Assembly (NCBI GenBank): GCA_002240395.1
Contig: CP016836.1
Location: 2,457,174 to 2,521,173 of the forward strand
DNA from: Xanthomonas citri pv. mangiferaeindicae
GTDB taxonomy: Bacteria; Pseudomonadota; Gammaproteobacteria; Xanthomonadales; Xanthomonadaceae
DNA length: 64,000 nt
Direction: 5' to 3'
In this document: piece after piece, positions 20,429 through 41,515 of the stretch
Numbering within the stretch: the stretch's first letter is position 1
Layout: the number at the start of each line of letters is the position of its first letter
Program-made: the position numbers and the translations under genes
The notes under the pieces: model-generated
Database searches by the model: none
What the model was told of the DNA's origin: nothing
What the model saw: only the letters and a program-made list of their open reading frames with translations

Positions 20429-20579
20429 CGTCTTGAGTTCCGGTCGCCGCGGGCGGCATGCGGGGATTCTAGGCACGAATCGCATGGTCGCGCAGCCGCG
20501 GTGGCGCTTGCATCCGGGACGATGCGTTGCGAGCATCGCGCGTTGCGGGCAAGGCCGCGGGGAAAGGGATGTCGGGCCC

Positions 20580-23500: not shown

Positions 23501-24131
23501 GCTGTTCCGGCGTTTCGAGCAGGCCGACGGCGCACGCACCGCCGCGCGCTACGGCGGCAGCGGCCTGGGGCTGGCGATCAGCCAGGAACTGTCGCTGGCG
23601 ATGGGCGGCCGGATCGACGTCGAGAGCACCCTTGGCGCGGGCACCCGGTTCACGGTCGTGCTGCCATTGGCCGAGGTCGCCACCCCGCCGCGGCGCACGC
23701 GCTTCGAGGGCCACGAGCGCATCACCGCGGCGGTCGGACTGGTGGTGCTGCTGGTCGAGGACGACCAGACCGTGGCCGACGTGATCCGGGGCCTGCTCGA
23801 GGCGCAGGGCCACCAGGTCGCTCACGCGATGCATGGGCTCGCTGCGCTGACCGAAGTGCGGACCCAGACGTTCGACATCGCCCTGCTCGATCTGGACCTG
23901 CCGGGCATCGACGGTCTGACCCTGGCCGGCATGCTGCGCGCCCAAGGCTTCGACCGTCCGCTGGTTGCGGTCACCGCGCGCGCCGATGCCGAGGCCGAGC
24001 CGGCGGCGCGCGCGGCCGGTTTCGACGGCTTCCTGCGCAAGCCGCTGACCGGCGAGATGCTGGCCGACGTGCTGGCCCAAAGCTGGCGGCCGGTCCACGA
24101 AGGCGGCGGTCTGGACGACCGCGAGGACTAA
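20580..24131 (+). CDS. Hybrid sensor histidine kinase (1,183 aa): signal/TM, periplasmic two-component-regulator beta-propeller repeats plus a Y_Y_Y-like domain, TM, HisKA, HATPase_c, C-terminal receiver
   Basis: [20 protein letters not shown]; repeated DGxxWIATxxGLxRYDG propeller motifs; [21 protein letters not shown]; H-box [12 protein letters not shown]; N/G boxes ([27 protein letters not shown]); receiver VLLVEDD...D. The track ORF 19299..24131 is extended upstream by artefact. Confidence 0.85.
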
Positions 24132-24177
24132 CGGCGGCTTGGCACCGCCTGCACGGCGGCGTCGCCAGACTGCCGCC

Positions 24178-25215: not shown

Positions 25216-25240
25216 GCGCCCGGCGCTCGAGGGCCTGCGC

Positions 25241-26953
25241 ATGAGGCGCTTCGCCCGGCTGTACCGCGAGCTCGATCGCAGCACCGCCACGCTCGACAAG
25301 CGCGCGGCACTGGTTGCCTACTTCCGCGACGCGCCGCCGCACGATGCCGCCTGGGCGCTGTTCCTGCTGGCCGGCGGCAAGGTCGCCGGGGCCGGGCGAC
25401 GCATCGCCAATACCCGCGAACTGCGCGAATGGATTGGTGAGGCCGCGGGCTTGCCCGACTGGCTGGTCGACGACAGCTACGACCAGGTCGGCGACTTGGC
25501 CGAGACGCTCGCGCTGCTGCTCGACGATCCCGTCGCGCCGGCCGACGACGTCTCGCTGGCCGAATGGATCGAGCGGCGGCTGATCCCGGTCGCCAATCGC
25601 GACCCGGCGGTCCGGCGCGCGCTGGTGGTCGAGGCCTGGGCTTCGCTGTGTTTCGACGAGCGGCTGGTGTTCAACAAGTTGCTGACCGGCGCGCTGCGCG
25701 TGGGCGTTTCGCAGCGACTGGTGCAGCAGGCGCTGGCGGAGATGAGCGGGCTGGACATCGCGCGTATCGCCCAACGCATGCTCGGCAGTTGGACGCCGAG
25801 CGCGCAGTTCCTGCGCGACCTGCTCTCGCCCGACGAACTGCCCAGCGACCGGCGTCAGCCGTATCCGTTCTTCCTTGCTTCGCCCTTGGAGCAGGCGCTG
25901 CGTCCCGACACGGTGAGCGAGGGCACGGATGTCGAGGCGGCCGCCGATGCGGAGCCGGATATGGACGTGGCGGCGCCGGTGCTGGCCAACGATCCCGACG
26001 CGGTCGCGCGTGCGCTCGGCCCGATCGAAGACTGGCTGCTGGAATGGAAGTGGGACGGCATCCGCCTGCAACTGATCCGCCGCGGCGCGGACATCGCGCT
26101 GTGGTCGCGCGGCGAAGAACGCCTCGACGGACGCTTTCCCGAGATCGAAGCCGCGGCGCTGACGCTGCCCCGCGACTGTGTGTTCGACGGCGAGCTGCTG
26201 GCCTGGCGGCCGGGCGAACCCGCGCCGATGCCGTTCACCGCGCTGCAGACCCGCATCCAGCGCCGCAAGCCCGGACCGAAGACACTCGCCGACACGCCGG
26301 TGCGCGTGCAGGTCTACGACCTGCTCGAGCTCGACGGCGAGGACTGGCGCGACCGGCCGCAGGCCGAGCGCCGGGCGATGCTCGAGACATTGGTCGCCCA
26401 GTACGACGATCCGCGCATCGTGATCTCGCCGCGTGTGGACGCCGCTGACTGGGCGCAGGCCGCCGCGCTGCGCGCCGATGCCCGCGCGCGCGGCGTCGAG
26501 GGCTTGATGCTCAAGCGCGCCGATGCCCGCTACCAGGCCGGCCGGCGTCGCGGCGACTGGTGGAAGTGGAAGATCGATCCGCTGACCATCGACGCGGTGC
26601 TGATCTATGCGCAGGCCGGCCACGGCCGGCGCAGCACGCTCTACACCGACTACACCTTCGCACTGTGGGATGGCGACACCCTGGTGCCGGTCGCCAAAGC
26701 CTATTCGGGGCTCGACGACCGCGAAATCCTCGCGCTCGACAAGTGGATCCGCGCGCACACCCTCGAGCGCTTCGGGCCGGTGCGTTCGGTCACCGCGCAC
26801 CATGTCTTCGAGCTCGGCTTCGAGGCGGTCAACCGCTCGAGCCGGCACAAGTCCGGCATCGCCGTGCGCTTTCCGCGCATCCTGCGCTGGCGCCGCGACA
26901 AGCCGATCGCCGAGGCCGATCGGCTCGAGACCTTGCGGGCGCTCGCACGGTGA
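25241..26953 (+). CDS. ATP-dependent DNA ligase, ligase-associated damage-response type (570 aa)
   Basis: Nucleotidyltransferase motif I WLLEWKWDGIRLQ (KxDG), motifs III-V (FDGELLAW, LMLKRADARYQAGRRRGDWWKWK) and OB domain. Start is Met 39 of ORF 25127..26953. Confidence 0.85.
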   Translation: MRRFARLYRELDRSTATLDKRAALVAYFRDAPPHDAAWALFLLAGGKVAGAGRRIANTRELREWIGEAAGLPDWLVDDSYDQVGDLAETLALLLDDPVAPADDVSLAEWIERRLIPVANRDPAVRRALVVEAWASLCFDERLVFNKLLTGALRVGVSQRLVQQALAEMSGLDIARIAQRMLGSWTPSAQFLRDLLSPDELPSDRRQPYPFFLASPLEQALRPDTVSEGTDVEAAADAEPDMDVAAPVLANDPDAVARALGPIEDWLLEWKWDGIRLQLIRRGADIALWSRGEERLDGRFPEIEAAALTLPRDCVFDGELLAWRPGEPAPMPFTALQTRIQRRKPGPKTLADTPVRVQVYDLLELDGEDWRDRPQAERRAMLETLVAQYDDPRIVISPRVDAADWAQAAALRADARARGVEGLMLKRADARYQAGRRRGDWWKWKIDPLTIDAVLIYAQAGHGRRSTLYTDYTFALWDGDTLVPVAKAYSGLDDREILALDKWIRAHTLERFGPVRSVTAHHVFELGFEAVNRSSRHKSGIAVRFPRILRWRRDKPIAEADRLETLRALAR

Positions 26954-27014
26954 CGGCGGCGTCCGGCGAGCGCGGCCGTCCGCGGTGCGCAGGGACGTGG
27001 CCCGGCCGGTGGCG

Positions 27015-29513
27015 ATGACTCGTCTTCGCGGCCCCGATGCGCCGCTGCGCGCCTGGTTTGCGGCGCAGGGCTGGCGTCCGGCACCGTTCCAGCGCGAGGT
27101 CTGGCGCCGGTATCTGGCCGGGGAGTCGGGCCTGTTGCATACCCCGACCGGCAGCGGCAAAACACTGGCCGCCTTCGGCGGGCCCCTGCTCGAAGCGCTG
27201 GCCGCGCGCCCGCGTGCGAAGGCCGGTCCACGCACGACCCCGGCGAAGTCAGCCGCGCGTGCCGGCAAAGACGCCGGGCGCAGGCTGCAGGTGCTGTGGA
27301 TCACCCCGCTGCGCGCGCTCGCGGTCGACACGGTGCGCGCATTGCGCGCGCCGATCGAGGCGCTCGGTCTGGATTGGACGGTCGCCATGCGCACTGGCGA
27401 TGCCAGCGCACGCGACCGGCGGCTGGCGCGCAGCGGCCAGGCCGAGGTGCTGGTGACCACGCCCGAATCGCTGTCATTGCTGCTCTCCTATGCCGACACC
27501 GCGCCGCTGCTGGCCTCGGTGCGCTGCGTGGTCGTCGACGAATGGCACGAACTGCTCGGCAACAAGCGCGGCGTGCTGCTGCAGCTGGCGCTTGCGCGGC
27601 TGCGCCGGCTCGCACCGGCGCTGCGCATCTGGGGCGTCTCGGCGACGCTCGGCAACCTGGCGCAGGCGCGCGATGCGCTGCTGCCGCATTGTCCGCAGGC
27701 GCAGGTGGTCGCCGGGGTGGCGCCCAAGCGTTTCACGCTCGACACGCTGCTGCCCGGCGAGGACGAGCGCTTTCCGTGGGCCGGCCATCTGGGCCTGGCG
27801 CAGTTGCCGCGTGTGCTGGAGCGGCTGATGGCCGAACGCACCAGCCTGCTGTTCGCCAACACCCGCTCGCAGGCCGAACTGTGGCATCGCGCGCTGTCGG
27901 CGGTCTGGCCGGAGGCGCCCGAAACGCTGGCACTGCATCACGGTTCGCTCGATCCGAAGCTGCGCGCGGCCGCTGAGCAGGGCCTGCGCGCCGGCAGCGT
28001 GCGCTGCGTGGTTGCGACCTCCAGCCTCGATCTCGGTGTCGACTTTCCCGCCGTCGACCAAGTACTGCAGATTGGCAGCCCGAAAGGCGTCTCGCGCTTG
28101 CTGCAACGTGCCGGGCGCGCACGCCACCGCCCGGGCGAAGCGGGGCACGTGGTCTGCGTGCCGACGCACGCGCTGGAACTGGTCGAGTACGCCGCGGCTC
28201 GCGCCGCGGTTGCCGCGGGTACGATCGAATCGCGCCCGCCGCCTGTGCTCAGCCTCGATGTGCTGGCCCAGCACTGTGTGACGCTGGCGCTGGGCGGCGG
28301 CTTCGAGGCCGATGCGCTTTACGACGAAGTCCGCGGGACCCATGCGTTCCGCGCGCTCGACCCACTGGCCTGGCGCGCGGTGCTCGATTTCATCGTCCAG
28401 GGCGGCGCGGCGCTGGCGCATTACCCCGACTTCCGCCGCGTGGTGCGCGGCGAGGACGGGGTCTATCGGGTCGAGGACCGACGCATCGCGCTGCGTCATC
28501 GCCTGTCGATCGGCACGATCGCCAGCGATGGCGCGGTGCGCGTGAAGCTGCTGCGCGGCGGGGGCCTGGGCTCGGTCGAGGAGAGTTTCGTCGGTCGCTT
28601 GCGGCCGCGCGACCGGTTCCAGTTCGCCGGCCGCACGCTGGAGTTGGTGCGGCTGGAAGACATGACCGCGTACGTGCGCGTCGCCAAGGCCGGCAGCGGC
28701 ACGGTGCCCAAATGGCAGGGCGGCCGGATGTCGCTGTCGGGCACGTTGGCGCACGAGGTCGAGCGCCTGTTCGCCGGCCCGCGCGATGCACCGGAGCTGC
28801 GTGCGATCGGTCGGCTGCTCGATCTGCAGCAGCGGCTGTCTGCACTACCGGCGCCGGGCCGCCTGCTGGTGGAATGGATCCGCGCGCGCGGCGCGCGCCA
28901 CCTGTTCGTGTTTCCGTTCGCCGGGCGTCAGGTGCACGAGGGCCTGGCCGCGCTGCTGGCGCTGCGCTGGGGCCGCCTGCGCGCCAACAGCTTCTCGTTC
29001 GCCGCCAACGATTACGGCTTCGTGCTCTCGCCCGCGCAGGAAGTGGAGCTCGATGCGCTCGATGTCGAAGCGATGCTCTCGCCCGAGGCCTTGATCGATG
29101 ACCTGCGCGAGAGCCTGAACCTGGCCGAGCTCGCCCGCCGCCAATTTCGCGACATCGCCCGCGTCGCCGGTCTGCTGCCGCCGTCGCTGCCCGGACGCGC
29201 GCCACGTTCGATGCGCCAGTTGCAGGCCTCCAGCGGCCTGCTGTTCGACGTGCTGCGCCGGCACGATCCCGACCACATGCTGCTGGCGCTGGCCGAGCGT
29301 GAGGTGTTCGCCGCGCAACTGGACGTGGTGCAACTGCGCACCACGCTGGAGGATTGCAGTGCCCGCAGGCTCGACCTGCATCCGCTGCGCACGTTCACCC
29401 CGCTGTCGTTCCCGCTGTGGGCCGAGTCGATGCGTGGCCAGCTCAGCACCGAGGACTGGCGCACACGCGTGCAGCGCGCGGCGGCGCAACTGGAGCGGCG
29501 CAATCGTGGCTGA
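27015..29513 (+). CDS. Ligase-associated DEXH-box helicase (Lhr-core-like, 832 aa)
   Basis: Motif I LLHTPTGSGKTLAA, motif II VVVDEWHEL (DEwH), motif VI QRAGRARHRPG. Start is Met 137 of ORF 26607..29513. Confidence 0.85.
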   Translation: MTRLRGPDAPLRAWFAAQGWRPAPFQREVWRRYLAGESGLLHTPTGSGKTLAAFGGPLLEALAARPRAKAGPRTTPAKSAARAGKDAGRRLQVLWITPLRALAVDTVRALRAPIEALGLDWTVAMRTGDASARDRRLARSGQAEVLVTTPESLSLLLSYADTAPLLASVRCVVVDEWHELLGNKRGVLLQLALARLRRLAPALRIWGVSATLGNLAQARDALLPHCPQAQVVAGVAPKRFTLDTLLPGEDERFPWAGHLGLAQLPRVLERLMAERTSLLFANTRSQAELWHRALSAVWPEAPETLALHHGSLDPKLRAAAEQGLRAGSVRCVVATSSLDLGVDFPAVDQVLQIGSPKGVSRLLQRAGRARHRPGEAGHVVCVPTHALELVEYAAARAAVAAGTIESRPPPVLSLDVLAQHCVTLALGGGFEADALYDEVRGTHAFRALDPLAWRAVLDFIVQGGAALAHYPDFRRVVRGEDGVYRVEDRRIALRHRLSIGTIASDGAVRVKLLRGGGLGSVEESFVGRLRPRDRFQFAGRTLELVRLEDMTAYVRVAKAGSGTVPKWQGGRMSLSGTLAHEVERLFAGPRDAPELRAIGRLLDLQQRLSALPAPGRLLVEWIRARGARHLFVFPFAGRQVHEGLAALLALRWGRLRANSFSFAANDYGFVLSPAQEVELDALDVEAMLSPEALIDDLRESLNLAELARRQFRDIARVAGLLPPSLPGRAPRSMRQLQASSGLLFDVLRRHDPDHMLLALAEREVFAAQLDVVQLRTTLEDCSARRLDLHPLRTFTPLSFPLWAESMRGQLSTEDWRTRVQRAAAQLERRNRG

Positions 29514-30180
29514 CGGCGCGTTGGAGATCGAGATTGCCGGCGAGGCGCTGCGATTGTTCGCCGAGCGTGCGCTGCTGTGGCCGCGGCAGCGCACGCTGGT
29601 CGTGGCCGACGTGCATCTGGGCAAGGCGCAGCACTTTCGCGAGGCCGGCATCGCGCTGCCGCGTGGCGGCACCGAGCACGATCTCGAACGGCTCGACGGG
29701 CTGATCGAAGCCAGCGGCGCGACGCGATTGCTGGTGCTCGGCGACCTGCTGCACGCCGGTGCGCGCGACGCGCCGTGGCGCACGGCCTGGCGGGCCTGGC
29801 GGGCGGACCGTCCCGCGCTGTCGGTCGACCTGGTCGGCGGCAATCACGATCGCGCCCTGCGCGCTGCGCCCGAGCTGGCATGCACGCTCGGCCTGCGCCT
29901 GCACGGCGCGCTGTTGCACGAGCCCCCCTTCGTGTTCGTGCATGACGTCGACGACGCGGTTGCGGCCGATGTCGCGGGCTACCGGCTTGGCGGGCATCTG
30001 CATCCGGTGGTGCGCCTGCCGGGCCTGCCGCGCTTGCCGGCTTTCGTGTTCGCGCAGGATGCCGGCTTGCTGCCGGCGTTCACCGCGTTCGCTGGCGGCC
30101 TGCCGATCGCACCGTCGCCCGGCATGCGGCTGTACCCCTGCGCGCCGGGGGCCGTGGTGGCGCTGCCGGCGACGCTCTGA
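29506..30180 (+). CDS. pdeM: Ligase-associated DNA damage response metallophosphoesterase PdeM (224 aa)
   Basis: Calcineurin-like motifs VVADVHLGK, LGDLLH, GNHD. The GTG start overlaps the helicase stop (GTGGCTGA), so the genes are translationally coupled. Confidence 0.75.
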   Translation: MADGALEIEIAGEALRLFAERALLWPRQRTLVVADVHLGKAQHFREAGIALPRGGTEHDLERLDGLIEASGATRLLVLGDLLHAGARDAPWRTAWRAWRADRPALSVDLVGGNHDRALRAAPELACTLGLRLHGALLHEPPFVFVHDVDDAVAADVAGYRLGGHLHPVVRLPGLPRLPAFVFAQDAGLLPAFTAFAGGLPIAPSPGMRLYPCAPGAVVALPATL

Positions 30181-30211
30181 GCGCATCCGTCGCTCGCATC
30201 CATCCGCTGGC

Positions 30212-30245
30212 TTGACGGCGACCGTAGCCGGGCTGGCATGATGGC
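30212..30245 (+). promoter_or_regulatory. Candidate sigma70-type promoter for the yqiJ/flotillin/AAA+/TelA operon (-35 TTGACG, about 18-19 bp spacer, -10 CATGAT)
   Basis: TTGACGGCGACCGTAGCCGGGCTGGCATGATGG lies 80-115 nt upstream of the 30327 ATG. The -10 is a weak match, so confidence is low. Confidence 0.25.
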
Positions 30246-30326
30246 GGGCCCATCGACCGGATGTTCGGCGGGAGCGGCCTGCGCGGGGAGTGTGGGCTGG
30301 CCAGGACACAGGAGTGCTTCGCCGAC

Positions 30327-30959
30327 ATGCCCGAATTCGTCGCCACCGCGCTCGGATACCCCACGCTCGTCTACAGCGTGCTGCTGGGGGTGTGCGCGCT
30401 CTACTGGCTGATCGCGGCGCTGGGGCTGGTGGACATCGGTGGCCTCGATCTCGACCTCGACCTGCCCGATGGCGCGGACGCGCATGGACTGGCCGGCGTG
30501 CTCGCACGGCTGGGGCTCGATCGGTTGCCGATCATGCTGGTGCTCACACTGGTGGTGTTCTTCGGCTGGTTCTGCACCTACTTCATCCATCTGTTCCTGC
30601 TCGCGCCGCTGTGGGGCTGGCTGCGCTGGACGCTGGGCACGCTCACTGCGCTGCTCGCACTGCTGCCGGGCGCACTGCTGACCACCGCGGCGCTGCGACC
30701 GTTGCGGCGCTGGCTGTCGAAGTTGCAACCGGTCGCCGAACCCTCGCTGCTGGGACGGGTGGCCGTCGTGCGGACGCCGACGGTGTCGGCGTCCGCCGGA
30801 ATGGCCGATGTCGACGACGGCGGTGCCGGCCTCGTCCTGCAGGTGCGCGCCGAAGGGGCCCATGTCCACCAACGCGGCGAGCGGGTGGTGCTGGTCGAGT
30901 TCGATCCTGTGGGGCATTGCTATCGGGTCGTGCCCGAAGCCGATTACCGTCACATCTGA
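30327..30959 (+). CDS. YqiJ/NfeD-like inner-membrane protein (DUF1449-like): N-terminal TM helices plus a C-terminal OB-fold beta domain; usual partner of flotillin YqiK
   Basis: MPEFVATALGYPTLVYSVLLGVCALYWLIAALGL..., a second and third hydrophobic helix, and a C-terminal GRVAVVRTPTVSASAGMADVDDGGAGLVLQVRAEGAHVHQRGERVVLVEFDPVGHCYRVV beta-rich tail. Start is Met 23 of ORF 30261..30959. Confidence 0.65.
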   Translation: MPEFVATALGYPTLVYSVLLGVCALYWLIAALGLVDIGGLDLDLDLPDGADAHGLAGVLARLGLDRLPIMLVLTLVVFFGWFCTYFIHLFLLAPLWGWLRWTLGTLTALLALLPGALLTTAALRPLRRWLSKLQPVAEPSLLGRVAVVRTPTVSASAGMADVDDGGAGLVLQVRAEGAHVHQRGERVVLVEFDPVGHCYRVVPEADYRHI

Positions 30960-31007
30960 TCCGTACGGTCCGCGGAATGCGGACCCCAAGCGAAGGAGAA
31001 ACACCCG

Positions 31008-32993
31008 ATGAGTGTCGCCACGCTCGCCCCGTTCCTGATCGGCCTGGGCATCGTCATGGTCGTGCTGCTCGGCGCGGCCGGCCTGTTCAAGGCCTTCTAC
31101 AAGAAGGTCGACCAGGGCACCGCGCTGATCGTCAACGACATGAGCACGCAGCCCAAGGTGCGCTTCACCGGTGCGCTCATCATCCCGGTCCTCTACCGCG
31201 CCGAGCTGATGAAGATCAGCCTGATCACGCTGCAGATCGATCGCCGGGGCAAGGAGGGGCTGATCTGCCGCGACAACATGCGCGCCGACATCGCGGTGGC
31301 GTTCTACTTGCGCGTCAACGAGACCCAGGCCGACGTGCTGCGGGTGGCCAAGGCCCTGGGCGCCGATCGCGCCTCGGACAAGCATGCAGTCGACGAGCTG
31401 TTCAACGCCAAGTTCTCCGAGGCGCTCAAGACCGTCGGCAAGAAGTTCGACTTCACCGACCTGTTCGAAAAGCGCCAGGAGTTCCGCGACGAGATCATCG
31501 CCGTCATCGGCAACGACCTCAACGGCTATGTGCTCGAGGACGTGGCGATCGATTACCTCGAGCAGACGCCCAAGAGCGTGCTCGATCCGCACAACATCCT
31601 CGACGCCGAGGGCATCCGCAAGATCACGGAGCTGACCGCCTCGCAGAACGTGGTCACCAACGAGCTCGAGCAGAACGAGCGGTTGGCGATCACCAAGAAG
31701 AATGTCGAGACGCGCGAGGCGACCCTGTCGCTCGAACGTCAGCAGGCCGAGGCCGAGGCGCGCCAGCAGCGCGAGATCGAGACGATCCGCGCGCGTGAGG
31801 AAGCCGAGACCGCAAAGGTGCAGGAGGAACAGCGGCAGGTCGCCGAGAACGCCCGCATCGAAGCCCAGCAGCTGATCGACATCCGTGAGGAGAACCGCCT
31901 GCGCGAGGTCGAGGTCGCAGCGCAGAATCGCCAGCGCGCGGTCGCGATCGAAGCCGAGCGCGTCGAGCGCGCCCGCCAGCTTGAGCAGGTCACCACCGAC
32001 CGTGAAGTGCAACTGCAGGGCGTGGAGCGCGACAAGGTCGTCGAGCAGGGCCGGATGGACGTGGCCAACATTACCCGCGAACGCATCGCCATCGACAAGA
32101 CCGTGGCCCAGGAGGAGGAACGGATCAAGGAAGTGCGCGAGGTGTCGGAAGCGGACCGTCTCAAGCAAGTCACGATCCTCGACGCCGAGGCCAAGGCGCA
32201 GGAGGCGTTGGTGCGTCAGGTCAAGGAAGCCGAGGCGCGCGAGACCGCCGCCCGGCACCGTGCGGTCGAGGTCACCACGCTCGCACAGGCCGATTTCGAG
32301 GCAGCCGGCAAGCAGGCCGAAGCCAAGAAGCTGCTCGCCGAAGGCGTCCGTGCCGAGCGTGCCGCGCCGGGTCTGGCCGAGGCGCAGGTGCAAGAGGCCG
32401 GTGCGGTCGCGATCGAGAAGGTCGGCGTTGCCGAGGCGCGCGTCATCGAGGCGAAGGCGGATGCCAATCTCAAGCAGGGGACGGCGGAGGCGCGGGTGCT
32501 GGCCGAGACCTTGTCGGCGCAGGCCCAGGGCGAGTCGCAGATGGGCCGTGCGAAGGCCGAAGCGGTCGAGTCGATCGGCAGCGCAGAGGCCACCGTGGTC
32601 GAGAAGAAGCTCTCGGCCGAGGCCGAGGGGCTGACCCGCAAGTTCCAGGCGATCGATGCGCTCAGCGATACCGCACGCGGGCACGAGGAGTTCCGCATGG
32701 CGCTCGACACAGGGCTCCGGCAGGCGCTGGCGTCGATCGAGGCAGGCAAGGACATCTCGCGCGAGAATGCCGAGGTCATCGCCAGCGCATTGCGCAACGC
32801 CGACATCGATCTGGTCGGCGGTGATGGCGGCATGTTCGAGAACCTGGTCAAGGCGGTCTCGCTGGGGCGGTCGATCGAGGGCCTGGCCGGCAAGAGCCCG
32901 ATCGTGCAGGACCTGATGCAGCGCTACCTTGGCGTCGCTGCCTCCAGTGCCGACACCGAGCGCCGCGCGCTCGTCGAGGACGGCGCGGCCTGA
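31008..32993 (+). CDS. Flotillin-family SPFH/Band-7 protein (YqiK-like, 661 aa)
   Basis: N-terminal TM LAPFLIGLGIVMVVLLGAAGLF, an SPFH domain (KISLITLQIDRRGKEGLICRDNMRADIAVAFYLRV) and a long EA/EAR-rich coiled-coil 'flotillin' repeat region (QQAEAEARQQREIETIRAREEAETAKVQEEQRQ...). RBS AGGAGAAACACCCGATG. Confidence 0.85.
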   Translation: MSVATLAPFLIGLGIVMVVLLGAAGLFKAFYKKVDQGTALIVNDMSTQPKVRFTGALIIPVLYRAELMKISLITLQIDRRGKEGLICRDNMRADIAVAFYLRVNETQADVLRVAKALGADRASDKHAVDELFNAKFSEALKTVGKKFDFTDLFEKRQEFRDEIIAVIGNDLNGYVLEDVAIDYLEQTPKSVLDPHNILDAEGIRKITELTASQNVVTNELEQNERLAITKKNVETREATLSLERQQAEAEARQQREIETIRAREEAETAKVQEEQRQVAENARIEAQQLIDIREENRLREVEVAAQNRQRAVAIEAERVERARQLEQVTTDREVQLQGVERDKVVEQGRMDVANITRERIAIDKTVAQEEERIKEVREVSEADRLKQVTILDAEAKAQEALVRQVKEAEARETAARHRAVEVTTLAQADFEAAGKQAEAKKLLAEGVRAERAAPGLAEAQVQEAGAVAIEKVGVAEARVIEAKADANLKQGTAEARVLAETLSAQAQGESQMGRAKAEAVESIGSAEATVVEKKLSAEAEGLTRKFQAIDALSDTARGHEEFRMALDTGLRQALASIEAGKDISRENAEVIASALRNADIDLVGGDGGMFENLVKAVSLGRSIEGLAGKSPIVQDLMQRYLGVAASSADTERRALVEDGAA

Positions 32994-33059
32994 GGCCGCA
33001 CTCGCTCCGCAACGTCGCAGAGGCGGTCGCCGGCCGCCGGTGACGCGCCGAGATCCACC

Positions 33060-33082
33060 GGGCATGCGCACAGTGCATGCCC
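33060..33082 (+). promoter_or_regulatory. Perfect 8-bp stem hairpin/palindrome (GGGCATGC-gcacagt-GCATGCCC) in the 109-bp gap between the flotillin and giant AAA+ genes
   Basis: Seen directly in the sequence. There is no U-run, so it is not a classic terminator. It could be an mRNA processing or stability element, or a protein-binding site. Confidence 0.3.
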
Positions 33083-33105
33083 GTCACAGCGCAGGATGAG
33101 TCGTG

Positions 33106-36100
33106 ATGTCAGAACCCACGCCCGACGCCGGGCAGCAGGCGCCCACGACGGCCAGCCATGTTGACGAGGCGGTCGCCCAGGGCGGTGCTTACGAGGTGCT
33201 GCGACGGCGCCTGGCCGAGCAGGGCGCACGCCTGCGCAGCTTGGCCGAGTCGCTCAACACACGCCGCTTGCAGGAGTTTGGCGACAGCCGCATGGAGGTC
33301 GCCGGACGCTTCCGCATCCGCACCGAGAACAATTGCGTCGGTCGCGACATCGTCCAGGTGCTCGGCGACCACCTGCTGTTTGGCTACAACGTCTACATCG
33401 GCCTTCGGACCCAGACGCGCGTCGAGGATGTTTTCGCGCTCTACCGCCTGACCGAGGAGGCGGACGGCTACGACGTGGTACCGGTCGACCCCACCGGCAG
33501 CTTCCTCGGCGATGCCGGCTTCGTCCGCGACTTCGGCGAACTCTACGCCTACTACAAGCACGCCCGCTTGCTGCAGTTGATCGTGCGCGAGGGCCGGTTG
33601 CTGGCCGCGTTCCAGATCGGCGAACGCAGTACCGACGTGCGCGTGTTCCGTTGGCAGATCGCCAACTCCGGGGAGCTGCGCTACCTGGACTCGCGCGGTG
33701 AGCGCGACATCGCCCTGCCGCCGCCGTTCGACTTCGAGTGGACTCGCGCGACCCGTGAGCTGGCGGTCGATGGGCGCCACCCGCATCTCAACATCCTCGA
33801 CACGATCTTCGTGGAGACGACCGGCGGCGACCTGACCGTCAAGATCGAGAACAACACGCAGACCGGGCAGGGGATCTATGCCGAGGCGGTCGAGGACCGC
33901 ACGCAGTCGATCGACGATGCGATCTTCGACTTCGCCAAGGTCGGGTCGCTGATCCTGCTTAAGGTGCTGCCCTACCGCGAACAGGCCTGGCGCGGACTGA
34001 TCTACAACACCTTGACCGGCACGATCGTGCGCAACGACGCCATCGTCCAGGCTTGCGTGCAACTGCCCGAAGACCACGGGATCATCTTCCCGGGCGGTTA
34101 CTACCTGCAAAGCGGCGAGCACAAGGCCTTCGACGCGCAGATGGACGGTATGCAGTTCAAGCGCGCGATCCGCTCGCCCAACGGCGAGGACGTCATGTAC
34201 GTCTTCTATGATCGCGAGGCTGGGCGCTCGGCGCTGTTCGTCTACAACACGATCCAGCGCGCACTGCAGAATCCGGTGTTCGGGCACGGCTATGCGATCC
34301 TGGCCGACGGACGCATGGTGCTGTTCCATGCCGAGGGCGATGCGCCGACCCGGATCCACCCGATGCAGGTCTGGCAAACGCCGTTCACCAGCGACGAGTA
34401 CGCCGCTCGCGTGCCGACCGGCAACAATTTCATGGGGCGCATCGGCAATCCCGAACTGGTGCGCGGCATCTCCAACCTGTTCGATCTCGCGCGCGAGATC
34501 GACGGCCGTGAGGTGTCGGTCCAGCGCTACCAGCTGCTGGTGCACAACGCCCGGCGCCTGTTCGACGCCCACCACTGGCTCGAGGACGAGGCGAGCGAAG
34601 GGGCCGGGCCGCTGCTGCACGAGATCGCCGCGACCGGCGAGTCGGTGCTCGATGAGTACGAGAAAGTCGAGGGAATCCGGCAGCAGTCCGATCTCGCGAT
34701 GCGCGAGGCCGAAGCCGAGCACCGCACTTTGCTGGGCCGGCTGCAGACCGACGACTGGGATCGGATCGAGGACTTCGTCGAGGCGCTCGGTGCGATCGGG
34801 CGACTGCGCGGTCACCTGCTGACGATCCGCGACCTGCGCTACATCGACACTGCGGCCATCGACCGCATGGGCGAGGCACTGCAGGCAGCCCAGGACCGCG
34901 TGGGCGCCGCGACGGGCGTGTTCCTGGCGGGCGAGACCGCGTTGCAGCCGCTGGCCGAGCGGCTGCACGCACTCGACGGCGAGGCGCAAGCTGCCCAGAC
35001 CGCGCGGACGCTGACCGAGCGTATCGACGCGATGCAGGCGTTGGCGGGCGATCTGGACATGCTCTCGGAGCTGATGGCCACGCTGAAGGTCGAGGATGCG
35101 ACAGAGCGCACGCATGTGGTCGAGGCGATCTCTGGACTGTACGCCCGGCTCAACCAGTCGCGCGCGCGTGCCGACCAGCGACGGCGCAGCCTGGGCTCGG
35201 CCGAGGCTGTCGCCCAGTTCGGCGCCCAGTTCGCGCTGTTCGGACAGGCGATCGCCGGCGCGCTGGCGCTGGCGACCGACCCCGAGCGTGCCGACGAACA
35301 GCTGTCGCGGTTGACCGTGCAGTTGGAGGAACTGGAGAGCCAGTTCGGTGAGCACGAGCAGTTTCTGGCCGACATTCTTGCCAAGCGCGAGGAGCTGGTG
35401 GAGACGTTCGAGGCGCACCGGCAGGCGCTGCTCGACGATCGCCAGCGCAAGGCCCAGGCAGTGTTCGACGCCGCGGCGCGCATCCTCGACGGCCTGCCGC
35501 GGCGGACCGAGCGGTTCACTAGCGCCGACGAGCTGAACGCGTTCTTCGCCGGCGATGCGCTGATCCTGAAGTTGCGCGAACTCGCCGGCCGGCTGCGCGG
35601 GTACCGCGACAACGTCAAGGCCGACGATGTCGAGGCGCGCCTGAAGGGGGTGCGCGACGAGGCGGTGCGCAGCCTGCGTGATCGCAGCGACCTGTTCGAG
35701 GGCGGTGGCCAGGTGATCCGGCTCGGGCGAAGGCACCGTTTCAGCGTTAACGTCCAGCCGCTGGACCTGACCATCCTGCCGCGCGGCGACGGCCTGGCGG
35801 TGCACCTGACCGGGACTGACTTCTACGAGGCGATTCACGACGCCGAGCTCGACGCACTGCGCGACTACTGGCAGGTGACGCTGGATTCCGAATCGCCGTC
35901 GATCGCGCGCGGCGAGTATCTGGCCGGACGTGTGCTGGAGGCGGCGATCGCCGGGCGCGACGATCTGCGTCTGGAAGAAATGGTTGCGCAGGTCGGCGAC
36001 CCGGATGCGCTCGAGCGCACAGTGCGGACCTTCGCCGCGCCGCGCTACCGAGAGGGTTATGAGAAGGGGATCCACGACCACGACGCGGCGTTGATCCTGC

Positions 36101-38424
36101 GCGCGCTGTTGCCGCTCTACGCCGCCGCAGGTCCGCTGGTCCACCCGCCGGCTGCACGCGCGCTGGCGATGTTGTTCTGGGCGCACGCTGGCGACGACGG
36201 TGACGCTGCGCAGTGGCCGGCGCGTACCGCCGGCGCACTGGCGATCGAACGCTTGTTCGGCTCCATCGACGGCGTGGACGCGCTGCGCGCGGAGATCGCC
36301 GAAGCGCTGTCGGGATTCCTTGTGCGACACGCGCTGCCGATTGATCCGGCATTGGCCGTGGATGCGGCGACGTACCTGATCGACGAACTGCGCGAGGGCG
36401 ATCCGACCTTCGGCATCAGCCACTACGCCCGACGCCTGGTCGACGCCCTGCGCGAAGCACTCGATGCGGCCGACCTGGCCGCCACCTTCGACGCCTCGAT
36501 GCAGCGTCTGGTCGAGCGGCCGTCGGCGCAATGGGCGTTGGCGGCGCAGTGGCTGTACGGCCTGTGCGGCGATCCCAAGCACGCGCCGCTGGCCGGCTAC
36601 GTGCCCGAGGCGATCGTGTTGTTGCTGGCCGGCCGCACGCTGCGCCATCGGGTGCGCGAGGCTGCGCTGATCGCCGAGGTCGCGGGGTTGCTCGGCGAGC
36701 ACCCGCGGATCGAGGAGGGCCGCCTGCGGTTGGCGGTTGACGATTTCCTGTCGCGGCTGCGCGCGCACCGCGAGACCTTCGTGCCTGCGTTCCACCGCTA
36801 CCAGGCGGTGCGTCAGCGCATCGCCACGCGCGAACGCGAGGCGCTTCGGCTATCGGAGTTCAAGGCGCGGCCATTGACCTCGTTCGTGCGTAATCGGCTG
36901 ATCGACGAGGTCTATCTGCCGCTGATCGGCGACAACCTCGCCAAGCAGATGGGTACCGTCGGCGAGGACAAGCGCAGCGACCTGATGGGCCTGCTGATGA
37001 TGATCTCGCCACCCGGATACGGAAAGACCACGTTGATGGAGTACGTGGCCAGCCGGCTTGGCCTGGTCTTCATGAAGATCAACGGCCCGGCGCTCGGCCA
37101 CGAGGTGCGCTCGCTCGATCCCGACCAGGCGCCCGATGCGACCTCGCGCCAGGAGCTGCACAAGCTCAACCTGGCGCTGGAGATGGGCAGCAACACGATG
37201 CTGTACGTCGATGATATCCAGCACACCCATCCCGAGTTCCTGCAGAAGTTCATCTCGTTGTGCGACGGCACACGCCGCATCGAAGGCGTGTGGCAAGGCC
37301 GCACCAAGACCTACGACATGCGCGGGCGGAAGTTCTGTGTGGTCATGGCCGGTAACCCGTATACCGAATCGGGCGAGGTGTTCAAGATTCCGGACATGCT
37401 CGCCAACCGCGCCGACATCTACAACCTGGGCGATGTGCTCGGCGGCATGGAGGATGCGTTCAAGCTCAGCTATATCGAGAACAGCCTGACTTCCAACCCG
37501 GTGCTGGCACCGTTGGCCACGCGCGACATGCGCGATCTGTATCTGCTGGCCGACCGCGCTGCGGGCAAGGAGGTCTCCACCAACGACCTGTCGCATGCCT
37601 ACAGCGGCGCGGAGGTCAACGAGATCGTCGCCACCCTGCAGCGGCTGATGCAGGTGCGCGACGTGGTCTACCGGGTCAATCAGCAGTACATCGCCAGCGC
37701 CGCACAGGCCGACCGCTACCGCACCGAGCCGGCGTTCCGCTTGCAAGGCAGCTATCGCAATATGAACAAGCTGGCCGAGAAAATCTCGCCAGTGATGAAC
37801 ACTGCCGAGTTGCAGCAGCTCATCGCCGACCATTACCTGGGCGAGGCCCAGCTGTTGACCACCGGCGCCGAGGAGAACCTGCTGAAGCTGGCCGAGCTGC
37901 GTGGCACGATGACCGAGGCCCAGGCCGCACGCTGGGCGCAGATCAAGCGCGACTTCCTGCGCGACAAGGCGATGGGCGGCGAGGACGCCGACACCGGCGC
38001 GCGCGTGGTGGCGCAACTGGCCGACATCGCCCAGGGCCTGCAGGCGATGGGCGGCGGCGAGCCACCGCCGGCACCGCCGCAGGTGCCGTGGCAGGACATC
38101 CTGGACGCCCTGCAGCGCATCGCCGCGCGCGAGGCGGACGTACCGGCCGTGCGAAGCGAACCTATCGAGGCCGCGCCGGCCGCGATGCAGGCCACGATCG
38201 CGCCGCTGCTCGAGCGATTCGGCGAGTCGCTGGCCGGGCAGGCCGGCCTCAATGCTGCCCTCGCGCAACTGATCGAGTTGTTGCAACTGCGTGTGGCGGC
38301 GAACGACGCCGCGCCTGCGACGGCCCGGGCGCGACGCGAGCGCACGCCTGCCGAGCGCCGGCTTGACGAGGCGCTCGACCAGTTGGGGCTACTGGACGGG
38401 CGCAGGGAGACACCGCCGGAATGA
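33106..38424 (+). CDS. Giant (~1,772 aa) uncharacterised protein: beta-rich N-terminal third, long helical/coiled-coil middle, C-terminal AAA+ ATPase of the AAA_5/MoxR-dynein-like type
   Basis: Single uninterrupted ORF with host-like codon usage and an AGGA RBS 9 nt upstream. Walker A ISPPGYGKTTLMEY (~nt 37000-37040), Walker B NTMLYVDDIQH (~37200-37225), sensor-1 FCVVMAGNP, and YTESGEVFKIPDMLANRADIY, which resembles the MoxR NP..G..LP.A.LDRF region. No VWA partner is present. Confidence 0.8.
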   Translation: MSEPTPDAGQQAPTTASHVDEAVAQGGAYEVLRRRLAEQGARLRSLAESLNTRRLQEFGDSRMEVAGRFRIRTENNCVGRDIVQVLGDHLLFGYNVYIGLRTQTRVEDVFALYRLTEEADGYDVVPVDPTGSFLGDAGFVRDFGELYAYYKHARLLQLIVREGRLLAAFQIGERSTDVRVFRWQIANSGELRYLDSRGERDIALPPPFDFEWTRATRELAVDGRHPHLNILDTIFVETTGGDLTVKIENNTQTGQGIYAEAVEDRTQSIDDAIFDFAKVGSLILLKVLPYREQAWRGLIYNTLTGTIVRNDAIVQACVQLPEDHGIIFPGGYYLQSGEHKAFDAQMDGMQFKRAIRSPNGEDVMYVFYDREAGRSALFVYNTIQRALQNPVFGHGYAILADGRMVLFHAEGDAPTRIHPMQVWQTPFTSDEYAARVPTGNNFMGRIGNPELVRGISNLFDLAREIDGREVSVQRYQLLVHNARRLFDAHHWLEDEASEGAGPLLHEIAATGESVLDEYEKVEGIRQQSDLAMREAEAEHRTLLGRLQTDDWDRIEDFVEALGAIGRLRGHLLTIRDLRYIDTAAIDRMGEALQAAQDRVGAATGVFLAGETALQPLAERLHALDGEAQAAQTARTLTERIDAMQALAGDLDMLSELMATLKVEDATERTHVVEAISGLYARLNQSRARADQRRRSLGSAEAVAQFGAQFALFGQAIAGALALATDPERADEQLSRLTVQLEELESQFGEHEQFLADILAKREELVETFEAHRQALLDDRQRKAQAVFDAAARILDGLPRRTERFTSADELNAFFAGDALILKLRELAGRLRGYRDNVKADDVEARLKGVRDEAVRSLRDRSDLFEGGGQVIRLGRRHRFSVNVQPLDLTILPRGDGLAVHLTGTDFYEAIHDAELDALRDYWQVTLDSESPSIARGEYLAGRVLEAAIAGRDDLRLEEMVAQVGDPDALERTVRTFAAPRYREGYEKGIHDHDAALILRALLPLYAAAGPLVHPPAARALAMLFWAHAGDDGDAAQWPARTAGALAIERLFGSIDGVDALRAEIAEALSGFLVRHALPIDPALAVDAATYLIDELREGDPTFGISHYARRLVDALREALDAADLAATFDASMQRLVERPSAQWALAAQWLYGLCGDPKHAPLAGYVPEAIVLLLAGRTLRHRVREAALIAEVAGLLGEHPRIEEGRLRLAVDDFLSRLRAHRETFVPAFHRYQAVRQRIATREREALRLSEFKARPLTSFVRNRLIDEVYLPLIGDNLAKQMGTVGEDKRSDLMGLLMMISPPGYGKTTLMEYVASRLGLVFMKINGPALGHEVRSLDPDQAPDATSRQELHKLNLALEMGSNTMLYVDDIQHTHPEFLQKFISLCDGTRRIEGVWQGRTKTYDMRGRKFCVVMAGNPYTESGEVFKIPDMLANRADIYNLGDVLGGMEDAFKLSYIENSLTSNPVLAPLATRDMRDLYLLADRAAGKEVSTNDLSHAYSGAEVNEIVATLQRLMQVRDVVYRVNQQYIASAAQADRYRTEPAFRLQGSYRNMNKLAEKISPVMNTAELQQLIADHYLGEAQLLTTGAEENLLKLAELRGTMTEAQAARWAQIKRDFLRDKAMGGEDADTGARVVAQLADIAQGLQAMGGGEPPPAPPQVPWQDILDALQRIAAREADVPAVRSEPIEAAPAAMQATIAPLLERFGESLAGQAGLNAALAQLIELLQLRVAANDAAPATARARRERTPAERRLDEALDQLGLLDGRRETPPE

Positions 38425-39179
38425 GCCGCCAGGCGCCGCACGACGCAGCGAAGACAAACACGTCGGCGGATCGGGTCGGCGCCGCGATGGCGCACGGCGC
38501 AGGGGCACTCGACGCGCTCGATGCGATCGAGCTCGAGGCGGCGCTGGATGCCGCTGCCGCCGCCGGGCTGGTCGAACGCCTGCGCGCGGTGCACCTGGCG
38601 ATGCGCGCGGACGCACCGCGCGCCCTGCGTCGTAGTGCCGGGTTGCTCGGACGCCTGTTCGGGCGAGACGTCAAGCTGCAGGCAGAGGCCAGCGCGCTGG
38701 CCGCACGCCTGGGCGTACTGCTGCGCGATGCCGATCGCGCCGCCGACGGGCTGACCGCGCATCTCGACGGCCAGCGCGCCTGCCTCGACCGGCTCGACGC
38801 AGCGCTGGCGGCGCTGCGCGCCGCTGCTGCGGACACCGGTCCGGCGCTCGGCGCTGCAGACGATGCAGCGCGCCTGGCGCTCGACCGGCGCCGGCAGCAT
38901 CTGCGCGACGTGGAGGCGGCGCATGCGCTGAGCGCGCGCCAGCTCGCACTGCTGCACGCGCAGGGCCTGTCGCTACTGGACCGCTACCGCAACATCCGTG
39001 AGGTGCTGGTGCCGGTCTGGCGTCAGCGCGCCCTCGGGACGGGCGCCATCGACGGCGCCGCGCAAACCGAGGCGGCCGCGGCGATCGAGGCCGAGATCGC
39101 TGCCGAACTCGCCGGCATGGCCGCTACACTCGACCCACGGCCGTCCGACCGGGCCGCCGATCAGGAGACCGTCGCATGA
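38421..39179 (+). CDS. Ala/Leu/Arg-rich all-helical 252-aa protein, translationally coupled on both sides (ATGA overlaps)
   Basis: The start overlaps the giant gene's stop and the stop overlaps the TelA-like start. Composition is very high in A, L, R, D (coiled-coil-like: LDAIELEAALDAAAAAGLVERLRAVHLAMRAD...). I recognise no family; its size and position recall KlaA (KilA) upstream of KlaB/TelA in the RK2 kilA locus. Confidence 0.55.
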   Translation: MSRQAPHDAAKTNTSADRVGAAMAHGAGALDALDAIELEAALDAAAAAGLVERLRAVHLAMRADAPRALRRSAGLLGRLFGRDVKLQAEASALAARLGVLLRDADRAADGLTAHLDGQRACLDRLDAALAALRAAAADTGPALGAADDAARLALDRRRQHLRDVEAAHALSARQLALLHAQGLSLLDRYRNIREVLVPVWRQRALGTGAIDGAAQTEAAAAIEAEIAAELAGMAATLDPRPSDRAADQETVA

Positions 39180-40276
39180 GCCAGGACACCCCCGACCACG
39201 CCCTCTTGCCCGCCGCCGGTGTGCTCGATGATGCCGCGCTGCAGGCCCTGGGCCTGACCGCAGACGACCGCGGCGAGATCGCCGCGGCCGGCAAGGCGCT
39301 TCAGGACATCTCGCCCGGCAATCTGCACGTGTTCGGCCGCGAGGCGGCGAGCAAGACGGCCGCCTTCTCCAGCCAGTTGCTCGATCAGGTGCGCAACAGC
39401 GACCTCGACGCCTCCGGCGACAAGCTCGGCGAGGTGGTACGCATCGCGCGCGGCCTCGACCTGGGCAGTGTCGCCGGGCGATCGAAGCTGCCGGTGATCG
39501 GCCCACTGATCGACCGGCTGCGTGGCTCGCGTGACGAACTGGTGCAGAAGTTCAGTACCACCAACCAGCAGATCGAGCGACTGATGCAGGACATCGGCCG
39601 CCAGCAGGACGGCCAGCACCGGCGCGTGTCCGAGTTCGACCGGATGTTCGACATCGTCGTCGAGGAGCGCCGTGCGCTGGGCGTCCACGTCGCGGCGGGC
39701 CGGCAGCGCTTGGCCGAACTGGCCGAGGACCTGCGCGCGCTCGATGGGCTCGACGACCCGCAGTCGCGTACCCGGCGCGCGGAGATCGACAACGCGGTCC
39801 GGTTGCTCGACAAGCGCGTCGGCGACCTGGCGGTGATGCAGCACGCCGCTGAGCAGTCGCTGCCGATGATCCGCTTGATCCAGGCCAACGCGATTCAGCT
39901 CATCGAGAAGTTCAACACCGTGCGCAACGTCACGATCCCGTCGTGGAAGCGGCAGTTCGCGATCCAGCTGTCGCTGGGCGAGCAGAAGAACGCAGTCGCG
40001 CTGTCGAATGCGATCGACGACGCCACCAACGAGTTGATGCGCCGAAACGCCGATCTGCTGCGCGAGACATCGGTGGGAACGGCGCGTGCGAACCAGCGTG
40101 CGGTGATCGACATCGCGACCCTGCGCCACGTCCACGACCAGCTGATCCACACGGTCGAGGAAGTCCGTCAGGTCCACCGCGAAGGCATCGAGCAGCGCCG
40201 GCAGGCAGAGGGCGAACTGGCGCGGCTGCGCGAGGACGTCCAGAAGCAGCTGGCCAAACCCGCGTTGGAGGTCTGA
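39176..40276 (+). CDS. TelA/KlaB-family 'toxic anion resistance' protein (366 aa)
   Basis: The conserved TelA C-terminal half is recognisable: MIRLIQANAIQLIEKFNTVRNVTIPSWKRQFAIQLSLGEQ..., DIATLRHVHDQLIHTVEEVRQVHREG. The protein is all-helical with no TM. Confidence 0.75.
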   Translation: MSQDTPDHALLPAAGVLDDAALQALGLTADDRGEIAAAGKALQDISPGNLHVFGREAASKTAAFSSQLLDQVRNSDLDASGDKLGEVVRIARGLDLGSVAGRSKLPVIGPLIDRLRGSRDELVQKFSTTNQQIERLMQDIGRQQDGQHRRVSEFDRMFDIVVEERRALGVHVAAGRQRLAELAEDLRALDGLDDPQSRTRRAEIDNAVRLLDKRVGDLAVMQHAAEQSLPMIRLIQANAIQLIEKFNTVRNVTIPSWKRQFAIQLSLGEQKNAVALSNAIDDATNELMRRNADLLRETSVGTARANQRAVIDIATLRHVHDQLIHTVEEVRQVHREGIEQRRQAEGELARLREDVQKQLAKPALEV

Positions 40277-40404: not shown

Positions 40405-40428
40405 AGCGCCGTCCGTTGAAGGACGGCG
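40405..40428. terminator. Stem-loop (GCGCCGTCC-GTTGAA-GGACGGCGC) in the convergent gap between the TelA-like gene and hemE; possible bidirectional terminator without a U-run
   Basis: 9-bp perfect stem, seen in sequence. There is no flanking T/A run, so this is low confidence. Confidence 0.3.
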
Positions 40429-40441
40429 CGCGCGTCCGGTC

Positions 40442-41515
40442 TCAGCGCGCGCTGTAGTCGTGCACCTCGTCGACGAGCACCGCGACGTGATCGGGATTCA
40501 TGTCCGGCGACATGCCGTGGCCGAGGTTGAACACGTGGCCGTCGCGCGAGCCCTGGTTGCCGGCGGCGTAGCTGTCGAGCGCTCGCCGCACTTCGCTGCG
40601 GATCGCATCGGGCGCGCCGTACAGCGTCGCCGGGTCGAGGTTGCCCTGCAGGGCGACGCGGCCGCCGGTCCGGCGCGCGGCATCGCCGAGCTCGATCAGC
40701 CAGTCCACGCCGACACCGTCGGCGCCGGTCTGTGCGAGGTCCTCGAGATAGGCGGCGGTGCCCTTGCCGAACAGGATCAGCGGTGCGCGGTCGGCGCCGT
40801 CGCCGCGCTCGAGTTCCTTGGCGATGCGCGCCAGGTACGGCAGTGAGAACTCGCGGTACATCGCCGGGCTCAGCACGCCGCCCCAGGTGTCGAACACCTG
40901 CAGCGCCTGCGCGCCCGCGGCGCGTTGTGCGGCCAGATAGGCGATCACCGCGTCGGTGTTGACCGACAACAGCGCGTGCAGCGCCTGCGGGTCGTTGAGC
41001 GCCATCGCCTTGATGCGCGCGAAGTCTTTGCTGCCACCGCCCTCGACCATGTAACAGGCCAGCGTCCACGGGCTGCCCGAGAAGCCGATCAGCGGCACCG
41101 CGCCGTCGAGCTCACGACGGATCAGCCGCACTGCGTCCATCACGTAGCGCAGTTCGGTCTCCATGTCCGGCACGCCGAGCCGGGCGATCGCCGCGGCGTC
41201 GCGCACCGGGTGGCGGAACTTGGGACCTTCGCCTTCGACGAAGTACAGCTCCAGGCCCATCGCGTCGGGGATGGTCAAGATGTCGGAGAACAGGATCGCC
41301 GCATCGAGCGGGAAGCGGCGCAACGGCTGCAGCGTGACTTCGCAGGCGATGTCCGGTTGCTTGGCCATGCCCAGGAAGCTGCCGGCCTGGCGACGGGTCT
41401 CGCGGTACTCGGGCAGGTAGCGCCCGGCCTGGCGCATCAGCCAGACCGGCGTGCGGTCCACGGGCTCGCGGCGCAGGGCGCGCAGGAAGCGGTCGTTCTT
41501 CAGAGGTGCGGACAA
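40442..41515 (-). CDS. hemE: Uroporphyrinogen decarboxylase (357 aa)
   Basis: [39 protein letters not shown]... is a canonical HemE N-terminus. Confidence 0.9.

Follow-up and report, generated by a model that had tools for sequence, protein, structure and literature searches.

The window analyzed here is a stretch of 64,000 nucleotides (nt) of Xanthomonas citri pv. mangiferaeindicae (contig CP016836.1, positions 2,457,174 to 2,521,173). It carries a five-gene operon that we read, with moderate confidence, as an inner-membrane stress and remodeling module belonging to the PspA-associated flotillin operons, in a variant of the Lysobacteraceae. The genes, here called g1 to g5, are predicted to encode a YqiJ-like membrane protein, a flotillin, a giant propeller-AAA+ ATPase, a KlaA homolog, and a TelA/KlaB protein, respectively. 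An earlier note, made from the sequence alone, had taken the whole operon to be undescribed. The g1-g3 core is in fact conserved in nearly all of the 88 loci that we compared and has been described in a published comparative study (Ravi et al. 2024, PMC11237479). Genes g1 to g3 therefore appear to form an already described, widespread, and computationally predicted core, and it is the KlaA/TelA extension that appears to be new.

The neighborhood of g3 was compared across these 88 loci, to which a genome scan contributed the best 80 of at least 589 confirmed g3 relatives. A flotillin gene lies immediately 5′ of the giant gene in 85 of the 88, and the remaining 3 loci end at a contig edge. A g1-like gene precedes the flotillin gene in most loci. 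The loci represent at least eight phyla and include Pseudomonadota, Myxococcota, Actinomycetota, Deinococcota, Bacteroidota, Gemmatimonadota, Acidobacteriota, and a Clostridia metagenome-assembled genome. Relatives of g3 were also found by tblastn on plasmids, in Pseudomonas (pQBR103), Deinococcus, Streptomyces, Hymenobacter, Halomonas, Vibrio, Photobacterium, Nonomuraea, and Proteus records. The g3 family as a whole comprises more than 5,000 homolog clusters at 90% identity and 454 at 50% identity with E values below 1e-30. Its member closest to g3, from Luteimonas sp. TWI1416, is 96% identical.

Unbiased clustering of the flanking open reading frames (ORFs) together with Pfam searches identified the genes that most often accompany the g1-g2-g3 triad. 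PspA (IM30) is encoded in 41 loci and the CesT/Tir-like protein DUF2170/YjfI in 39, upstream of the triad and mostly on the same strand. Downstream, the extra genes include PLDc_2 (phospholipase D [PLD]) genes in 14 loci and rhomboid genes in 12. DUF2170 and PspA precede the triad in loci L013, L015, L016, L029, and L046 and in another 36 loci, and in five loci DUF2170-PspA-g1-g2-g3-g4-TelA form a single co-directional block. The idea that TelA substitutes for PspA was rejected because these five loci hold both. In the X. citri operon there is no PLD gene, and neither PspA nor DUF2170 was found anywhere in the 64-kb window.

TelA is encoded in about 19 of the 88 loci and is missing from about 69. 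Both g4 and TelA genes stand 3′ of the triad in Luteimonas, Xanthomonas chitinilytica, Stenotrophomonas, Pseudoxanthomonas, Thermomonas, Solilutibacter, and one Lysobacter. Among the loci compared, the KlaA/TelA pair is thus a lineage-specific addition in a subset of the Lysobacteraceae. Where present, the five genes are contiguous in three genomic contexts and move between them as a unit. In Luteimonas they are flanked by the phosphoesterase (MPE) gene and hemE, and in Stenotrophomonas and X. chitinilytica by trpF and trpB; the third context is the seven-gene form with DUF2170 and PspA. A different arrangement, g1-flotillin-giant-PLD-TelA, occurs in Vibrio campbellii and Photobacterium. Since the Vibrionaceae TelA shares only 29% identity with g5, compared with 49% for plasmid KlaB, the identities point to two independent recruitments of TelA to the triad, one in the Lysobacteraceae and one in the Vibrionaceae. 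Conservation of the gene order, whose failure the earlier note had named as grounds for refutation, holds throughout for the flotillin-giant adjacency and is limited, for TelA, to these two groups.

At the Longimicrobium loci (Gemmatimonadota; L093-L095), the triad stands alone, and the giant protein shares 72% identity with its Xanthomonadaceae counterparts. This identity far exceeds what would be expected from the distance between the phyla and indicates a recent cross-phylum transfer of the triad.

The published operon class matches the core of the X. citri operon closely. Ravi, Anantharaman, Aravind, and Gennaro (mSystems 2024; PMC11237479) described, by computational means, PspA-associated operons that combine a Band-7/flotillin protein, a YqiJ/YuaF protein, and a propeller-AAA+ protein. 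Operons of this class encode a CesT/Tir-PspA pair, a YqiJ/YuaF protein with three transmembrane segments, and sometimes PLD, and abbreviated operons without PspA are the more widespread (PMC11237479). The window has the YqiJ-like, flotillin, and propeller-AAA+ core, and sister genera carry the full DUF2170-PspA form. It differs in lacking the CesT/Tir-PspA pair and PLD and in adding the ATGA-overlapping KlaA-like and TelA genes. TelA is not mentioned in the main text of that study or in one supplementary file (PMC11237479). We found no publication that links TelA with the flotillin/AAA+ genes; the 2012 treatment of Ter/TelA systems by Anantharaman, Iyer, and Aravind may already mention such a context.

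The identities of g1, g2, and g4 come from profile-profile comparison with E. coli YqiJ and YqiK and with plasmid KlaA, direct Pfam and NCBIfam searches having failed. The g2 protein has an N-terminal transmembrane segment, an SPFH domain, a long Glu/Ala/Arg-rich coiled coil, and a flotillin C-terminal region. It has no Pfam match even at E values up to 10, and its match to NCBIfam FloT (E = 3e-4, 19.8 bits) falls below the cutoff of 700. One of six g2 orthologs matches Pfam Band_7 (PF01145; E = 9e-11), and the orthologs carry SPFH or flotillin annotation in RefSeq. A profile built from the six orthologs aligned with E. coli YqiK at an hhalign probability of 99.9% (E = 1.5e-33, 31% identity, 416 columns); against PDB sequences, the flotillin profile gave a marginal match to QmcA alone (E = 0.016). 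Because of the YqiK alignment, g2 is best classified as a divergent YqiK-type flotillin subfamily rather than as a nonmember.

Evidence for g1 is of the same kind. The protein has three predicted transmembrane segments and a C-terminal beta-rich, OB-like tail, and its size, hydrophobic segments, and tail agree with those of YqiJ. No Pfam family exceeded threshold (YqiJ_N scored E = 0.72), while the g1 ortholog profile aligned with E. coli YqiJ over 147 columns (hhalign probability of 59%, E = 9e-5). Orthologs at 82 to 86% identity are labeled DUF1449 or OB-fold-containing protein in database records. Together, these results give moderate support to the assignment of g1 as a YqiJ/DUF1449 (NfeD-like) inner-membrane protein. 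The proposal that g1 and g2 are a YqiJ/YqiK pair was accordingly borne out well for the flotillin and moderately for its partner, and Pfam recognizes neither protein directly. The likeness to E. coli yqiJ-yqiK extends to gene order and to similar protein sizes. The differences are that none of the giant ATPase, KlaA, and TelA genes follows yqiK in E. coli K-12 and that g2 and YqiK share only about 31% identity.

The only module previously recognized in g3 was an AAA+ ATPase near the C terminus. That domain is present, with Pfam AAA_5 above its threshold (E = 5e-6, 26.9 bits versus a cutoff of 22) and AAA at E = 4e-5, but it is not the sole module. Residues 43 to 490 match DUF3686 (PF12458) over nearly the full profile (E = 3.7e-194, profile positions 2 to 448 of 448), and residues 612 to 695 match DUF7902 (PF25472; E = 9e-24). 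The protein is predicted to be soluble. A coiled coil spans residues 14 to 58, and a beta-propeller spans residues ~64 to 424, inside the DUF3686 region. A long helical region that includes DUF7902, the AAA+ domain (residues ~1288 to 1440), and a helical low-complexity tail make up the distal part. An AlphaFold2 (AF2) model of residues 1 to 750 had a predicted local distance difference test (pLDDT) score of 74.7, and Foldseek matched it to beta-propeller proteins with E values of 3e-5 to 4e-4. In the model, then, the N terminus of g3 is a coiled coil followed by a beta-propeller.

The ATPase motifs were examined in 25 diverse members of the g3 family (32 to 51% identity). Walker A (SPPGYGKT), Walker B (LYVDDIQH), N1417, and R1435 are conserved, and PPGYGKT, N1417, and R1435 are invariant; N1417 is a putative sensor 1 residue and R1435 a putative arginine finger. 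Where canonical AAA+ proteins have DE in Walker B, all 25 members have an invariant DD (window positions 37210-37215), which reads as a family trait and not as decay. Matches of g3 to PDB entries are confined to the surroundings of the P-loop, a region that resembles Rix7, p97, and RuvB.

The g5 protein had been called TelA in the earlier note, and this assignment is firm: its Pfam TelA match has E = 1.8e-72, and IncP plasmid KlaB, at 49% identity, is closer to g5 than is any other TelA compared. The neighboring g4 had been described as placed like KlaA. No Pfam family recognized g4 directly, and the g4 family aligned with IncP KlaA at an hhalign probability of 98.5% (E = 2.8e-15, 189 columns), so that the resemblance goes beyond position to homology. 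Plasmid KlaA scores above the Pfam TelA threshold in its own right (E = 9e-11; klaA at 2201-2929 of IncP plasmid pMNCN064, locus L090), which indicates that klaA and klaB are paralogous. The g4 family also aligned with the TelA family (hhalign probability of 66%, E = 6e-5) on a shared C-terminal IRDVLLPxWRQ / VRNVTIPSWKRQ block. By these comparisons, g4 is a short, divergent TelA-family paralog, and g4-g5 is a klaA-klaB-like tandem. An AF2 model of g5 (pLDDT of 71) predicted an elongated bundle with helices at residues 111 to 189, 195 to 308, and 313 to 359 (79, 114, and 47 residues, respectively). No TelA relative was found by sequence among solved PDB structures.

The tandem resembles the kilA operon of IncP plasmids (RK2; klaA-klaB/telA-klaC/telB) in homology, gene order, and tight linkage. 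It differs in that it is chromosomal, stands at the 3′ end of a flotillin/AAA+ operon, and lacks KlaC/TelB, for which tblastn gave no match in the window or across the related loci; kilA, unlike g4-g5, lies within the plasmid kil/kor regulon. As for the ter cluster (terZABCDEF), the earlier note had stated that no other ter genes are present. A search with TerD as the sole probe, without TerB and TerC, agreed for the window, giving no significant match (best E = 0.52). To our knowledge, TelA-family proteins have been listed as resistance or kil determinants since the early 1990s without a known mechanism or biochemical function. In PMC3762200, a 2007 paper is cited as claiming a relation of TelA to the major vault protein, which has an SPFH-like shoulder domain. 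As a separate observation, KlaA of pMNCN064 weakly matches Band_7 (E = 0.004, residues 47 to 107).

All five plus-strand ORFs reported earlier are present at 30327-40276, and the tight packing, spacers, ribosome-binding site, hairpin, and overlaps reported with them were matched in the sequence (Table 1). The g1-g2 spacing is 48 nt and the g2-g3 spacing 109 to 112 nt, while the g3/g4 and g4/g5 stop/start overlaps are both ATGA, which suggests translational coupling of g3, g4, and g5. A hairpin between the convergent g5 and hemE genes is probably a bidirectional terminator that marks the 3′ end of the operon. The host-like composition noted before was upheld, with a GC content at third codon positions of 0.80 to 0.90 in g1-g5, comparable to that of neighbor genes. 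Total GC content is ~0.67 to 0.68 across g1-g3 (window positions 30001-38000) versus 0.71 to 0.73 in the flanks and g4-g5; the dip probably reflects Lys/Glu/Ile-rich coiled coils and not foreign origin.

The g2-g3 spacer folds with a minimum free energy of −52.3 kcal/mol (z = −1.87). A GC-rich hairpin lies between the flotillin stop codon and the ribosome-binding site of the giant gene in all Lysobacteraceae loci inspected. In L039, L014, L010, L011, L012, L017, and L029, its position is the same and its sequence differs. Conserved position without conserved sequence suggests a structural RNA element in this spacer. The hairpin is possibly an attenuator or an mRNA stability element, and it could fix a high flotillin-to-ATPase ratio.

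Table 1. Features of the flotillin/TelA operon and its surroundings, in window coordinates
Feature	Position	Strand	Length	Remarks
g1, YqiJ/DUF1449-like	30327-30959	+	210 aa	ORF; alternative ATG at 30261
g2, YqiK-type flotillin	31008-32993	+	661 aa	ORF
g3, giant DUF3686/AAA+ ATPase	33106 (or GTG 33103)-38424	+	1,772 aa	ORF
AAA+ core inside g3	36967-37425	+		Walker A K1307, Walker B D1369-D1370, N1417, R1435
g4, KlaA homolog	38421-39179	+	252 aa	ORF; Ala-rich, helical
g5, TelA/KlaB	39176-40276	+	366 aa	ORF
Hairpin in g1-g2 spacer	30967-30985	+		GGTCCGC-GGAAT-GCGGACC; sequence reading
g2 ribosome-binding site	30993-30998	+		AAGGAG; sequence reading
GC-rich hairpin in g2-g3 spacer	33059-33083	+	11 bp	Just 5′ of g3 ribosome-binding site
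GC-rich hairpin between g5 and hemE	40406-40429	.		GCGCCGTCC-GTTGAA-GGACGGCGC; probable bidirectional terminator; sequence reading
hemE	40442-41515	-		Convergent to g5
Hybrid sensor kinase	19299-24131	+	1,610 aa	Reg_prop/Y_Y_Y propeller repeats, HisKA, HATPase_c, receiver; 5′ of repair cluster
Ligase-associated repair cluster	24139-30180	+	Four genes	Directly 5′ of operon
Repair cluster, ORF without Pfam match	24139-25212	+		
Repair cluster, ATP-dependent DNA ligase	25127-26953	+		
Repair cluster, Lhr-type helicase	26607-29513	+		
Repair cluster, calcineurin-like phosphoesterase (MPE)	29299-30180	+		

Reading the operon as an inner-membrane stress or remodeling module ascribes a putative role to each product. 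SPFH proteins build membrane cages with NfeD partners. Like other SPFH/NfeD pairs, the flotillin and the YqiJ-like protein would oligomerize into a scaffold at the inner membrane, on its cytoplasmic side, and the giant ATPase would dock onto this scaffold through its propeller and coiled-coil region. There it might power, with ATP, the assembly, remodeling, or recycling of long coiled-coil assemblies at stressed membrane, in a manner akin to FtsH within HflK/C cages or to Vps4 on ESCRT-III. The KlaA-like protein and TelA, as elongated helical bundles, would serve as partners or clients, binding or protecting membrane that has been damaged, and would work beside PspA where it is present without taking its place. 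On this view, the tellurite or "toxic anion" phenotype to which TelA owes its name would be one way in which membrane or redox damage shows itself and not the function proper. YdjI of Bacillus subtilis ties PspA to the membrane, and mutation of telA makes Listeria sensitive to antibiotics that act on the envelope. B. subtilis pspA-ydjGHI and HflK/C-FtsH are comparable in that there, too, membrane quality control relies on an SPFH scaffold joined to a partner of the PspA or AAA+ type. Their partners are nonhomologous to those described here, and g3 has no protease domain and has a propeller and coiled-coil architecture instead. For the core operon, the same functional reading was reached by independent comparative genomics in the 2024 study (PMC11237479).

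A bolder proposal, which we offer tentatively, is that TelA/KlaB and KlaA serve specifically as partners or clients of a giant AAA+ machine, which is scaffolded by flotillin and cooperates with PspA as well. By analogy, this machine would carry out ATP-driven membrane repair in the manner of ESCRT-III and Vps4, with nonhomologous parts. If this is true, membrane repair would account for all of the TelA phenotypes seen with tellurite, colicins, phages, and antibiotics. The operon in any case offers a concrete, testable place for the long-unexplained TelA in membrane stress biology, and Stenotrophomonas, Xanthomonas, and Vibrio campbellii are tractable hosts.

Several results weigh against the membrane stress reading. 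TelA is not a core component of the triad. The operon-linked PspA profile aligned with the TelA and KlaA-like families at an hhalign probability of only 0.2%, and Foldseek matched the g5 model to generic helical bundles only (best E = 0.035). TelA and KlaA as PspA/ESCRT-III homologs were thus rejected at the sequence level, with no support from Foldseek. Because there is neither homology to PspA nor a significant structural neighbor, we infer the biochemical role of these two proteins from context. The DD of Walker B may mean that ATP turnover by g3 is slow or regulatory. A scan for sigma-70-type promoters 5′ of g1 found no site, and a literature search for DUF3686, PF12458, or "DNA repair ATPase" together with flotillin found nothing.

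The operon could instead be an anti-phage or abortive-infection system in which the giant propeller-AAA+ protein senses infection and TelA and KlaA, replaced elsewhere by PLD or rhomboid proteins, act on the membrane as effectors to kill the cell or arrest its growth. We consider this unlikely. Overexpression of klaA, klaB, or klaC is lethal to the host, and ter/TelA determinants are linked to phage and colicin resistance. Such toxicity and resistance would fit a defense role, as would the patchy spread of the operon, its megaplasmid copies (pQBR103, Deinococcus, Streptomyces, and Hymenobacter), the clear horizontal transfer seen in Longimicrobium, and the effector-like variation of the accessory genes among PLDc_2, rhomboid, and TelA. 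The recurrent partners PspA and flotillin are, however, classic envelope stress proteins, and inheritance of the triad within the Lysobacteraceae appears largely vertical. The flanks hold housekeeping genes (trp genes, hemE, aroKB, and the DNA ligase cluster) and not defense islands. PADLOC-DB v2 models were unmatched except for a 29-residue P-loop match to IetA (E = 0.011), and 50,697 phage records contained no copy; membership in a known defense system was rejected on these two results.

It is quite unlikely, in our judgment, that two unrelated modules merely stand side by side, the flotillin/AAA+ triad and a chromosomal kilA-type klaA-klaB pair serving, for example, tellurite or oxyanion resistance. 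The absence of TelA from most triad loci would be explained in this way, and klaA-klaB does stand alone on IncP and Dyella plasmids, whose IncP KlaB is the closest relative of g5 among the TelA proteins tested. The g3/g4 ATGA overlap nevertheless leaves no space for a promoter or terminator between the supposed modules, and the five genes stay contiguous across three genomic contexts. A distant TelA has, moreover, joined the same triad in the Vibrionaceae. The plasmid tellurite resistance determinant needs KlaC/TelB, and none was found in the window or related loci.

That g3 is a DNA repair ATPase cooperating with the adjacent Lhr-ligase-phosphoesterase cluster is highly improbable and is largely refuted by the neighborhood data: the operon does begin 146 nt past that cluster on the same strand, Pfam does describe DUF3686 as an "ATPase involved in DNA repair," and the P-loop region is weakly RuvB-like, but the cluster adjoins the operon in just 3 of the 88 loci, all from Luteimonas (L010, L014, and L039), the partners that stay constant are membrane proteins (flotillin, YqiJ, and PspA), Pfam detects no nucleic-acid-binding or nuclease domain in g3, the RuvB similarity spans only ~45 residues around the P-loop, and no literature supporting the name was found. 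A functional link to the Lhr/ligase cluster was rejected because the adjacency is limited to Luteimonas loci. The giant DUF3686-AAA+ family, which annotation sources name "DNA repair ATPase," is large, paired with flotillin, and misleadingly named. These findings suggest that the Pfam/NCBI name of the giant protein needs revision.

One plasmid locus extends the range of arrangements around the triad. On pQBR103 (Pseudomonas fluorescens SBW25; L001, 85407-97641), PspA, rhomboid, and yjfK/L/M/C-like genes precede the triad; the yjfK/L/M/C-like genes encode proteins of the DUF2491, DUF350, DUF1190, and glutathionylspermidine synthase families. This plasmid joins both PspA operon classes of Ravi et al. 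in one co-directional block.

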